From Massalongia carnosa (lineage: Eukaryota), in NCBI GenBank assembly GCA_965645245.1, contig OZ287069.1, positions 2,108,001 to 2,172,000 of the forward strand: 64,000 bases of DNA, written 5' to 3'. The position numbers and the translations under genes were made by a program. Shown here in pieces: positions 27,191 to 30,987 of this stretch. The notes beneath the pieces were generated by a model that had not been told where the DNA came from, did no database searches, and saw nothing but the letters and a program-made list of their open reading frames with translations. Position 1 is the first letter of the stretch; every line of letters starts with the position of its first letter.

Positions 27191-28323
27191 TCAAACTCCT
27201 TTCAATTCAACCAGCCGCTCGAACTCGGACATCTCTTCTACGGGCATAGGATACGTATGCGCAGGAGCAGGGTATGAGCGGCTCTTTACTTCACCTAAAA
27301 TTTGGTTGCTAAGTTAGCTTTGGGACAAGTTCTGAGGTGAGCATGGAAGGCTGTACTTTTGTAGGCTTCTATGGCTTTCATGCTCTCTCCCCATACGTTG
27401 CCGTACTGTTTGACGAATTTCGGGAGGAACCGGCCAGGAGGAAAGTTGCCGGACATGTCCACCTGAACTAGCACTTGGCCCGAGCAGCCGTTGCCGGCCC
27501 CAATACCTATGGTGGGGATCTTGAGCTTCTTGGTCACAAGGCTCGCTACCTCCGCAGGCACAGCTTCTAGAACAACAGCAAAGCAGCCAGCAGCTTGCAC
27601 TGCGAAGGCATCTTCCAGGACCTTGAGCGCCCCGATTGTCGTCTTGCCCTGAACCCTGAACCCTCCGAGAGAGTTCTGCCGTTGGGGTGTTAGGCCAACG
27701 TGTCCGAGAACTGGGATCCCAGCTCGGGTGATACGTTCGATGGTTGATGCCATTTCGAGGCCGCCCTCCAACTTGATACCTTGGACTCGACCTTCCTTGA
27801 TTACCCTGATGGCCGATTCGAGGGCTTGCTCAGGGGCAATTTCATATGAGCCCATGGGGAGGTCTCCAACCTATTGGGAAGCTTTTAGCGAACACAGGCA
27901 ATAATGATCTAGGGAGGGATGGCGCACGGTGAAAGCGGATTTGGTAGCTCTGGCCACGCTTCGGCAATGCAAGATCATCTCCTCCAGCACCACTTCACTT
28001 GTGTCCTCCATGCCTAATGCAACCATAGCTAAACTATCACCGACAAGTATCATATCCATACCAGCGGCATCAGCGACATGGGCGCTCGGGAAATCATGCG
28101 CCGTGATCATGGTTATAGGTTCTTGCTTATGATGCAGGGTGCGGAGCGTATTAATGGTAACTTTTTTGCGAGGATTGGATGTCGTTGCACCCATTGGAGA
28201 ATGCGAGCTCCGCCGTGTTTGATATTGGGACAGCGTGATAGGGCGGATCACAGCAGGCAGCGACAGCTTTGCGCAAAGCAGAGCGGCTTGAAGAGGGTTT
28301 GATCGTGTGAGCCGGTGCGACAT
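27191..28323 (-). CDS. panB: 3-methyl-2-oxobutanoate (ketopantoate) hydroxymethyltransferase
   Basis: Three exons. Motifs ITMITAHDF, ILVGDSLAMV, DLPMGSYE, IKLEGG, GHVGLTPQ, PTIGIGAG..GQVLV and PKFVKQY. The Arg/Ser-rich N-terminus resembles a mitochondrial presequence. Confidence 0.93.
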
Positions 28324-29106
28324 GCTATCACCCTGGTTCTTTCGCAACGGAAGTAGTGGATGAAGGTGGAGAATAGGGATGAGAGAGAGGAGATGAAGAT
28401 GACAGATCCATTGTTTTAGTAAGAAAGGCCAGTTTTTTTTAGTACTCAGCTCGTGATGGTGAGTGCGGCGGATGTTTGGGTACGATGATGGATTTTCTTT
28501 GAAGCCGCAAGTGGGTGAATCGTTCGTCTCCTTTAGGCCTAAGGCTGATTTGGCCGCTAGCCTTTTGGCCGCCGGTTCAACTCCCCAAATTGGGATATCA
28601 CATGACTGGTAAGAGAGGTAGTCAATATTGGCAGTTAATGCAGCTGTATAAGGTACACGTGAACGTACACATATCAACTAAATGCAATCAGTTAAAGCCA
28701 AGTTAAAGCCGAGACTTGATGCATGACCCCGCCGTCTTTGTTGTTGACGCCACAGTCACTTACCCTCGGGTTTTCCAATTAAGGTACTCAATAGGTGTCT
28801 TAGTCTTTCAGATCTCTGTTTTTCTTCCTCAGAGCCTTAACACCCTTTCTGCAAAACTGGATCTCAATCTTTGCACACCACGGAACAAACAAAGGACTGA
28901 GCTCTACGTTCAAGTAGAGTCGACCTAGCCTTTCTTAGATTTTCTAGACTTGATAAGATCTTCCTAGACTCTCGACAAAACACTTCAGCGGTGATTTTGA
29001 ACTCCCAGTACTAGAGTGAGAATACCATTAGAGTTACAATCGGCATTACGCAAGTCCAATAGGATACCAAGGCTATAACTCAACCCGGGCATCATCGGGC
29101 GGCAAG

Positions 29107-30186
29107 ATGAGTAGCCCAAAAAGGAGGATTGAGAGCGATGTGAGTCTAGGTGTAATCAGACTCTATCGCGTGAGGCGAAGCACTCGATTTACATAGGCTA
29201 ATACGATATTCTGTTGGTGGGAATAGGTTATGAAGTGAGTTGGGAAGCTGATTCATATCCTCAAGTTTATGTTGATAGTGTTTAGGATGTATGACGTCCG
29301 CCCGAAATAGCAGCTTCATGCTCTCCAAGATTGTTCGAGAACGTAAAATGAAGTGATTGACTTCTGGTTAGGATGATGAGTGACTATGAGGTGACCTTGG
29401 TCAACGACAATAGTGAGTAAAGTTTATGAAGCTTGGTAGATGCTAGATGCTAACTGTTACCTAGTGTATGCAAAAGAAAGCTCTTAATGTCCTCAATATT
29501 TTGGATAGAAGAGGCTTATCCTCGATTGTTATAAAGGCAGGAGTTCTTCGTCCGTTTCAAGGGCCCTGAAGAAAGTATGACAAAGGAAAGTACTGGAATA
29601 TAAGTGGATAACGCTGATCTGGTTCTTTAAGCACCATTCACCGGCGGTCTTTGGAAAATCCATGTAGAGCTTCCAGATCAATATCCATATAAGAGTCCCA
29701 GCATTGGATTCGTCAACCGAATCTTCCATCCCAACATTGATGAATTGTAGGCCCTTTTTTTTACATTTAAGACCTTTTGTGTTTAAAGGTTTCGTGCTGA
29801 AAAAATTCAGATCCGGGTCCGTCTGTCTAGATGTGATAAATCAAACTTGGTCGCCTATGTACGACATGATCAATATTTTCGAGGTCTTCTTGCCTCAACT
29901 TCTCCGATATCCAAACCCTACAGATCCTCTCAACGGAGAGGCCGCCGCGTTGCTAATGCGAGATTCCAAGACGTACGAAGCCAAGGTTAAAGGTAACACA
30001 CCGTCCTCAGAAATAGGAGCAGAGAGTTAGACTTACAAACTTGTGCATTCAGAATACGTTGCAAAGTATGCGACTAAGGATGCTGCTGATGACGCTGGTG
30101 AAGATAGTGAATCGGAGGACGAAATGAGCTCCGTTGGAGATTTTGAGTCTGAAGATGAAGAGCCTGCAGGACCGATGGAGGTTTGA
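29107..30186 (+). CDS. UBC8: E2 ubiquitin-conjugating enzyme, Ubc8/UBE2H type
   Basis: Eight-exon model: 29107-29139, 29227-29234, 29372-29412, 29465, 29537-29574, 29632-29746, 29811-29992, 30053-30186. It gives [59 protein letters not shown] and an acidic tail. Confidence 0.92.
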
Positions 30187-30987
30187 CGACATCTTTATGA
30201 TTATATGCGCTGCAAGGTGTTGAACGGGATACGCTTTCTTTGCTTAAGTTTCATGATCAAGATGGGATAGGAGTTGTGGAGTTGGGGCATCAGATTTCCC
30301 CTCATCATGTCAATAGTTGAATGAAGAACTTAATTAAGTTAATATTGTATTTTGGTATAGGCCTAAGCCTAGTGTTAGGTGAAGGGCAAACTTGACCAAT
30401 CCTTGCAGGAAATATAAAATAGGCTTTTCTGCCAAAGTATGCTACTGCGAAATTTAGTAGAGGTCCACACAGAGCCGCCCACATTGAAAAGCTTTGCCTG
30501 TTGACACCCTGAACAGGTGCATATAAAAAAAAAACACTTCATGTATAAAAGTGGAACAGTTTCGGGCTTATTTCGGGGGAGGTTGCTCTATGCGACGCCA
30601 ACGTCATCCATTTTGTTATCGTCAACAAACATTCCACCAAGCTGCCTGCATGCAAACTATAATCCCTATTTTACCATATCAGCGGCTCTCTGTACCCCTC
30701 ATGTCTCGGAAGAATTCATAGTTCGCTGAAAAGGTATTTACTGTCTTTAGTACTCAGGTAACCATGAGCATGGTATAGGACATCCACATATTTGTCAGCC
30801 CCAGGGTAGGCACCGCGCCTCACACATTCGATAGAAGCATTGTTCACTTTTGAACCTTATCTACCAGGATCGTACCGTTCTGCTGCCCGCACTTTTTGAG
30901 TTCCCGGTCCGACCGAAAGCGACGAGGAAGAAACATTGCGATACAAGGAGACAAGGACTGAGCATTTAATCTTTCGAACAAACAACG

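Follow-up and report, generated by a model that had tools for sequence, protein, structure and literature searches.

We describe a UBC8/UBE2H-type gene in DNA from Massalongia carnosa in which a coding exon very probably consists of one base. The gene lies on the + strand of the window, a 64,000-nt stretch of contig OZ287069.1 (assembly GCA_965645245.1), where it runs from a start ATG at 29107 to a stop TGA at 30186; we read the window from 28700 to 30500 and checked the coordinates by script. The base in question, the T at 29465, sits between a canonical acceptor (CTAG) and a canonical donor (GTATGC), each of them part of a complete intron, and would supply the middle base of a conserved Met codon. 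An original prediction, made from the letters of this region, had proposed both this exon and an 8-nt exon upstream of it. We accept both for this organism with high confidence; the support for the one-base exon is comparative and comes from the sequences of relatives.

The probable one-base exon and its conservation

Exon 4 (41 nt, 29372..29412) ends in ..AAC GAC AAT A, the last A opening the Met codon. It is followed by intron 4 (52 nt, phase 1, 29413..29464), which begins with GTGAGT, carries GCTAAC at 29449-29454 and ends in CCTAG; by exon 5, the single T (29465..29465); and by intron 5 (71 nt, phase 2, 29466..29536), with a GTATGC donor, a branch-like but non-consensus GCTTAT at 29514 and an ATAAAG acceptor. 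Exon 6 (38 nt, 29537..29574) brings the G of the Met codon, 12 residues and a final A. Joining A, T and G keeps the frame, rebuilds the conserved Met and gives ..VNDN-M-QEFFVRF... Other treatments of the same sites fail: retention of intron 4 yields NDNSE-stop, retention of intron 5 yields NDNMYAKESS-stop, and use of a GCAG acceptor, with an exon from 29541, shifts the frame into stops. All of this agrees with the original prediction, whose donors, acceptors, GCTAAC motif, T 29465 and ATAAAG were each found by script where it had placed them. When exon 4 is joined to exon 6 from the GTGAGT donor and the T is omitted, the frame shifts and a stop is reached about 25 codons on, before two further introns. 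The claim that skipping the T shifts the frame holds for that donor and does not hold elsewhere, as two other canonical routes through the region remain in frame (see below).

The prediction had suggested a search for a conserved AG-T-GT arrangement across UBC8 loci (hyphens mark exon-intron borders). Using the 60 residues of exon 8 as the query, we retrieved 80 metagenome loci and, in these and the window (81 sequences), read the interval between the peptides ..SDYEVxLxxD[NS] and [QS]EF[FYH]Vx[FL]xGP. The layout A-GT..AG-T-GT..AG-G, with both introns of at least 40 nt, is present in 54 of the 81, that is, in the window and 53 of the 80 related loci. A plain ATG is found in 20, and one or both flanking peptides are missing from six (L010, L026, L027, L050, L055 and L077). 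The remaining sequence, L038, has a single intron, A-gt..ag-TG: it keeps intron 4 and lacks intron 5, and its next exon starts with TG. Eight genomic loci retain other introns and have none at the Met codon, which they read as ATG (L044, L048, L057, L060, L065, L070, L072 and L080). We count the exact loss of both introns in these loci, and of intron 5 in L038, in favour of the one-base exon. The Met itself also occurs outside Pezizomycotina, in models from Acaromyces, Neolecta and one plant.

When the interval is grouped at ≥80% identity, the 54 sequences with the AG-T-GT layout fall into 38 clusters. Identity between clusters has a median of 0.585 and a maximum of 0.752, and the introns are barely alignable from one cluster to another. 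In the window and in all 38 clusters, a single base, always T, separates the AG from the GT. AGTGT is correctly placed in 38/38 clusters; in 1,000 shuffles of the interior, 2.8 of the 38 clusters on average, and 8 at most, had it at any position, so the layout exceeds chance. Across the clusters, intron 4 measures 46 to 87 nt and intron 5 measures 50 to 95 nt. Over 291 coding nt, nearest neighbours are mostly 80 to 85% identical and synonymous sites are saturated. We also tried to label the metagenome loci by their best named protein. These labels carried too much noise, since the protein varies too little and read-through introns occur in many of the named models, and they are not used for any claim, including the few close matches (L020 to Cenococcum, 98%; L016 to Alternaria, 96%).

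Transcript-like sequences from relatives carry the T. Eleven intron-free, full-length contigs of 1,039 to 1,574 nt (L014, L017, L029, L030, L033, L036, L056, L067, L071, L073 and L079) all read NDN-M-QEF; a twelfth locus with a plain ATG, L066, is ambiguous. The most direct comparison pairs the transcript-like L017 (1,199 nt) with the genomic L025, to which it is 98.3% identical over 291 coding nt. When L025 is spliced in silico into exons of 33, 8, 3, 41, 1 and 38 nt, the resulting 124 nt are an exact substring of L017 (124/124). The sequence TGCAGGAG is not contiguous in the genomic DNA of L025, and ..AATATGCAGGAG.. can be laid out on that DNA with canonical sites in no other way. L062, spliced likewise, matches L071 at 122/124 positions with no gap. 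In addition, 15 unnamed database proteins read NDN-M-QEF, and those checked lie mostly on contigs of ~0.9 to 1.8 kb; one of them, P0077 (1,217-nt contig), equals the Lepidopterella palustris model P0055 except for insertions at two micro-exon sites. If these contigs are transcripts, as their structure suggests, they show the T in the mRNA of close relatives that have the same genomic layout.

Alternative routes through the region

Exhaustive enumeration of GT/GC..AG introns between 29373 and 29574 left 7 single-intron and 109 two-intron routes open. Among them, only the route with the one-base exon keeps both flanking peptides and gives Met. One of the single-intron routes nevertheless keeps both flanks, and it is the only one to do so: a canonical GT-AG intron of 120 nt that begins with a GTAAAG donor (29417) and ends with the acceptor at 29536. 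The donor shift brings in 4 nt and the T drops out, a net gain of 3 nt, so the frame is kept, and the protein reads NDN-SE-QEF, one residue longer and without the Met. Any GTNNGT first donor allows the same kind of route (28/38 clusters), and five named models follow it with NDN-SK/ST/SM-QEF (Dissoconium, Cenococcum, Aureobasidium, Eremomyces and Coccidioides). However, NDN-S-x-QEF occurs in none of the 11 intron-free contigs and in none of the 15 correctly reading unnamed proteins, all of which have M, and the exact match between L025 and L017 has ATG. A single intron would also leave the AG-T-GT conserved in 38/38 clusters within it unexplained; the +4 donor hexamer shows no conservation, and 120 nt is long against the 51 to 87 nt of the gene's other introns. 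We therefore regard this route as quite improbable. A second in-frame route joins exon 4 directly to exon 7 (A + CA.. = T), since the T and the 38-nt exon 6 together make 39 nt; the protein would lack 13 residues. Nine of 60 named Pezizomycotina models are built this way, including that of the closest named relative, Sticta canariensis. Against this stand the strict conservation of the exon 6 protein sequence in every locus that has the exon and its presence in all transcript-like contigs. The exon 6 residues, moreover, fall within residues 12-141 of the full-length relative P0126, the span that matches UQ_con, so the loss of 13 residues would remove part of the core fold, and we give this skipping even less credence than the shifted donor.

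A frame that breaks at a single base is what an indel error would be expected to produce, so we also considered an assembly artefact or a pseudogene. The prediction had named an assembly indel as a concern. Contigs from three DNA runs cover 29000-30400 with 0 differences, 0 gaps and word depths of 120 to 850; the runs may be the window's own source, and their agreement argues against an assembly slip without being independent. Independently of these runs, the same one-base layout recurs in 37 other clusters, and the remaining exons are intact and highly conserved, which makes an artefact or dead gene extremely improbable. A further possibility, compatible with the one-base exon, is that inclusion of the T is regulated, as the prediction had proposed: the skipped, frameshifted mRNA would go to nonsense-mediated decay and thereby tune Ubc8 levels. 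The stop about 25 codons downstream, ahead of two introns, would suit such a switch, as would the weaker signals of intron 5 relative to intron 4 (a pyrimidine at donor +3 in 15/38 versus 4/38 clusters and a branch motif in 18/38 versus 34/38). No T-less transcript was seen among the 12 ATG loci without N-terminal introns or the 15 unnamed proteins, a weak argument, as assemblies drop rare forms. The +3 pyrimidine is not peculiar to intron 5 (intron 6, 9/35), and Fisher tests on signal strength are overstated because the clusters are related. We consider such regulation unlikely, though less so than the routes above.

Several observations weigh against the one-base exon. The transcript status of the contigs was inferred from the absence of introns, contig size and collinearity, not from library records, and none of the 11 ends in poly(A). 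The window itself offers the two canonical in-frame routes just described, from the GTAAAG donor at 29417 and from exon 4 to exon 7. Lastly, intron 5 of the window has the non-consensus branch-like GCTTAT and a GTATGC donor.

A separate sequencing run from another study (run X4, labelled organism B; 0.52 of words) yielded six short contigs identical to the locus at 29160-30102, introns included, at a depth of 2.5 to 4.4. These are low-depth genomic fragments rather than transcripts, and they do not cover 29376-29469. Judging by this identity, the same fungus or a very close one is present at low abundance in run X4.

Gene structure, protein class and public models

The gene has nine exons, of 33, 8, 3, 41, 1, 38, 115, 182 and 134 nt, separated by introns of about 51 to 87 nt. 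Joined, they form a 555-nt open reading frame (ORF) that encodes a complete E2 (ubiquitin-conjugating enzyme) of 184 residues in an uninterrupted frame. Exon 1 (33 nt, 29107..29139) runs from the ATG to ..GAT and encodes 11 residues; its end (..E-x-D before GT) is common to related loci. Intron 1 (87 nt, phase 0, 29140..29226; GTGAGT..AATAG) leads to exon 2 (8 nt, GTTATGAA, 29227..29234), which encodes V, M and two bases of K and has AG before it and GTGAGT after it. Intron 2 (51 nt, 29235..29285; GTGAGT..GTTTAG) is followed by exon 3, the 3 nt GAT (29286..29288), which provides the final base of K and the first two of M. Intron 3 (83 nt, 29289..29371; GTATGA..GGTTAG), with a branch-like ATTGAC at 29356, precedes exon 4. 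Downstream of exon 6 come intron 6 (57 nt, 29575..29631; GTATGA..TTTAAG), exon 7 (115 nt, 29632..29746), intron 7 (64 nt, 29747..29810; GTAGGC..ATTCAG), exon 8 (182 nt, 29811..29992), intron 8 (60 nt, 29993..30052; GTAACA..ATTCAG) and exon 9 (134 nt including the stop TGA, 30053..30186).

Exon 3 had been overlooked. The original prediction treated 137 nt as a single intron 2, within which ..GTTTAG-GAT-GTATGA.. (29286-29288) lies; its gene model stood as regards the T and the 8-nt exon, and its protein was one Met short (VMKMM..). Including GAT keeps the frame and gives VMKMMMSDYEV, equal in length to the VMKMLMSDYEV (11 residues, V to V) of transcript-sized relatives, and divides an atypical 137-nt intron into two of 51 and 83 nt, sizes like those of the gene's other introns. 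The strict pattern AG-GTNATGA[AG]-GT..AG-GAT-GT..AG-GNNNATG is found in 34 other loci, in which GTNATGAA/G between AG and GT is a separate 8-nt exon. By manual reading, seven more loci pair the 8-nt exon with a 3-nt exon of another sequence (GCT, GTT or ATT), one of which, L062, was confirmed by pattern; nine have the two fused into an 11-nt exon; six retain only the intron after the 11-nt segment (..GAT/GCT); and 14, transcript-like contigs included, have none. GAT is contained in the exact match between genomic L025 and transcript-like L017, and both L017 and the likewise transcript-like L071 carry the 8-nt exon. The recurrence of this layout in related loci and transcript-like contigs argues that the 8-nt exon at 29227-29234 is real, as predicted, and, on the same kind of comparison, the window gene is read as having exons of 8, 3 and 1 nt. 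Over the loci as a whole (L001 to L080), the N-terminal introns, five in number, come and go in many combinations: the full set occurs in 34 loci and the window with GAT and in seven more with another 3-nt exon, and none in L060 and L072.

The protein belongs to the class that had been predicted. Exons 7 and 8, which encode the UBC core, match Pfam UQ_con (PF00179) with E values of 2.5e-12 (profile 41-77) and 1e-14 (profile 78-137), and the full-length relative P0126 matches it with 2.8e-40 (residues 12-141). Direct reading of the translation places an HPN motif (..IFHPNIDEL) in exon 7 and a catalytic Cys (SGSVCLDV) in exon 8; the HPN motif and this cysteine are the catalytic motifs of E2 enzymes. 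Exon 9 encodes an acidic C-terminal extension rich in D, E and S. The 60-residue exon 8 query found 4,756 homologues at E ≤ 1e-10, whose names, where given, are E2 H or E2 8. Compared with solved chains, P0126 is closest to "E2-24 kDa" (8pmq_E, E 2e-68) and to UBE2H (8pjn and 2z5d, E ~1e-65), and the first other named E2 class (E2 13/E2-17.5 kDa) appears only at 1e-26; this class comparison used the relative P0126 and the window exons, not the joined window protein. These matches and motifs make the window gene an orthologue of UBC8/UBE2H, which is the E2 of the GID/CTLH ubiquitin ligase; the GID ligase is linked to glucose-regulated degradation. Among named proteins, the closest comes from the lecanoromycete Sticta canariensis (97% identity over the 60-residue exon and 86% over the tail); in a protein search with the C-terminal tail, the top match was a genomic ORF (P0121, 98%) and the nearest transcript-sized relative was P0126 (84%).

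Two side observations concern the surroundings of these exons. At the junction ..IDEL/SGSV.. between exons 7 and 8, transcript-sized P0126 and P0154 and one model, P0050, are one residue short (IDE-SGSV or IDEL-GSV), which may reflect an alternative acceptor or donor 3 nt off at intron 7. Upstream of the gene, an ORF on the - strand (27871-28677) matches ketopantoate hydroxymethyltransferase (PF02548, E 3e-26), with the match confined to positions 1-80 of the profile; it probably represents a single exon of a panB-like gene transcribed in the divergent direction.

Public gene models handle this gene poorly. We classified 64 named models from protein search listings, with names transcribed by hand: two from plants, two from outside Pezizomycotina (Acaromyces and Neolecta) and 60 from Pezizomycotina. 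The Acaromyces and Neolecta models read M correctly. Within Pezizomycotina, just five of the 60 read NDN-M-QEF (Psora, Bacidia, Tothia, Thermoascus and Delitschia), six are without the region, and 49 are wrong at or beside the junction. In the largest group of these, the SDYEV exon is lost (14 models); nine skip the T and the 38-nt exon, five take the +4 donor, and five read on from the T into intron 5 (e.g., NDN-MY.. in Salinomyces). NDN-R-QEF appears in three and other insertions in eight, while QEF is lost in five, among which Paecilomyces and Emmonsiellopsis (NDN-MY..) are counted. The 3-nt exon fares no better: models often leave it out (VMK-LMSDYEV in Venturia and Wetmoreana) or read on beyond it (VMKMY.. 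in Pseudogymnoascus, Monilinia, Emmonsiellopsis and Paecilomyces). The mis-modelled species span Lecanoromycetes, Eurotiomycetes, Dothideomycetes, Leotiomycetes and Sareomycetes (one species per class checked), and these error patterns of protein models point indirectly to the presence of the layout in all five classes. Tentatively, and at somewhat less than even chance in our judgment, the T of UBC8 could be the most widely conserved one-base exon known so far, dating from an early ancestor of leotiomyceta, lost only by precise intron loss and possibly kept in all five classes.

Proposed splicing model and comparison with known systems

We propose that dense introns cut the 5' half of this nine-exon UBC8/UBE2H orthologue into exons of 33, 8, 3, 41, 1 and 38 nt and that T 29465 would be a constitutive one-base exon giving the middle base of the conserved Met codon. 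With introns of ~50 to 90 nt, the spliceosome assembles across the intron, and the exon has no minimum length. Each short intron would thus be recognised as a unit (5' site, branch site and 3' AG), with no exon-spanning signal required. Positions -3/-2 of the intron 5 donor coincide with the acceptor AG of intron 4, so that the two sites would hardly be usable together and removal would take two successive rounds. The removal order is not forced by the sequence, because no splice signal is split: either order would give ..AAT ATG CAG.., and a failure to include the T, with exon 4 joined to exon 6, would lead to the frameshift and early stop. The original prediction had held that ordered removal is needed; removal of one intron after the other is plausible, and both orders lead to the same mRNA. 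For this organism, we infer splicing at these sites, two-round removal and constitutive use.

Signal strength may bear on the order. Close to its 3' end, intron 4 has a strict NCTRAY motif in 34/38 clusters, against 18/38 for intron 5 (Fisher p 0.0001), and a pyrimidine stands at donor +3 in 15/38 for intron 5 and 4/38 for intron 4 (Fisher p 0.007), with both significances inflated by the relatedness of the clusters. GCTTAY recurs at the branch place of intron 5 in several other clusters. As controls, the +3 pyrimidine occurs in 1/84 of introns 1 to 3 and in 9/35 of intron 6, and the latter figure weakens it as a special mark of intron 5. With its weaker donor and branch signals, intron 5 could tend to be removed after intron 4, or these signals could enforce an "upstream intron first" order. 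We also considered an RNA fold that would bring the splice sites together and rejected it: the predicted fold of 29405-29545 is no better than that of shuffles (z = +0.50).

How does this arrangement compare with known ones? Recursive splicing at ratchet points, known from long introns of Drosophila and vertebrates, has an acceptor abutting a donor with zero bases left. The UBC8 site resembles it in the succession of acceptor and donor and in removal of the interval in two steps, but ratchet points serve very long introns, whereas UBC8 has introns of ~50 to 70 nt and keeps one coding base; a recursive splice site, i.e., a zero-length exon, is ruled out by the T that separates AG and GT. The original prediction had likened the site to stwintrons. 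In stwintrons of Pezizomycotina, as described in the available portions of the papers, the donor, acceptor or branch sequence of an external intron is split by an internal one (PMC5639578, PMC5587772, PMC6616335). Shared features are two introns in contact, filamentous ascomycetes and separate splicing reactions (PMC5639578, PMC5587772, PMC6616335). The likeness does not extend further: neither UBC8 intron interrupts the donor, branch site or acceptor of the other, and both are complete and canonical. In stwintrons the order is obligatory and nothing is left between the introns, while in UBC8 every signal is continuous, both orders are possible on paper and a single exonic base stays behind. 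With intact GT, branch-like motif and AG in both introns and a coding base between them, membership in the stwintron class is ruled out.

One-base exons themselves are already known. That of Arabidopsis thaliana APC11 was proven by mutagenesis: mutation of the base changed the mRNA base, and its deletion shifted the frame (Guo & Liu 2015, PMC4674806). As in UBC8, the base lies between AG and GT in an annotated single intron, is required for the frame and was missed by the reference annotation (PMC4674806). The differences are that APC11 is a plant gene with a 422-nt annotated intron, that its base is A, not T, and that the evidence is experimental, while that for UBC8 is comparative; the rice orthologues are without the intron, and the portion of the paper available does not report wide conservation (PMC4674806). 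In the basidiomycete Coprinopsis cinerea, a long-read annotation counted, genome-wide, 13 one-base exons in 13 genes, 57 two-base exons and 27 three-base exons, in passages that leave the genes unnamed, and omission of ultra-short exons often makes premature stops (PMC12230235). Within the passages available, these counts show that fungal spliceosomes handle ultra-short exons routinely (PMC12230235).

The closest parallel is the P450 gene CYP621A of Fusarium, which its authors, in the portion of the paper available, term the second case ever and the first fungal one (Nelson & Syed 2026, PMC12940212). The 13 one-base exons of Coprinopsis had been counted before it (PMC12230235). CYP621A, too, is a nuclear gene of Pezizomycotina with AG-N-GT inside an over-long "intron", and the base takes the middle position in a conserved codon; its support comes from RNA reads together with an intron-free relative, and, as for UBC8, almost no public model has it right (PMC12940212). 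In that gene, the base is G (AGGGT), the P450 is rarely expressed, and 20 orthologues fall within the Fusarium group (PMC12940212).

No report of a one-base exon in UBC8 was found in the literature searched, which took in few subscription journals and, for PMC12230235 and PMC12940212, text of the articles themselves. The locus suggests that, where splicing is intron-defined, introns that abut each other can persist stably over long evolutionary spans and beyond one genus, and it offers a test locus for removal order and splicing fidelity. If the weaker signals of intron 5 do enforce removal of the upstream intron first, UBC8 would provide a natural model, open to genetics, of the way in which an intron-defining spliceosome deals with two abutting introns. 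The fault in public annotation is systematic, and gene finders and aligners need an explicit AG-N-GT rule. Compared with CYP621A, UBC8 has a T, in a housekeeping E2, conserved in 38 divergent clusters, with tell-tale model errors in at least five classes and with neighbouring exons of 3 and 8 nt. It is thus by breadth of conservation, by its place in a housekeeping gene, by its 3- and 8-nt neighbours and by the scale of misannotation that the UBC8 case stands out among known one-base exons.

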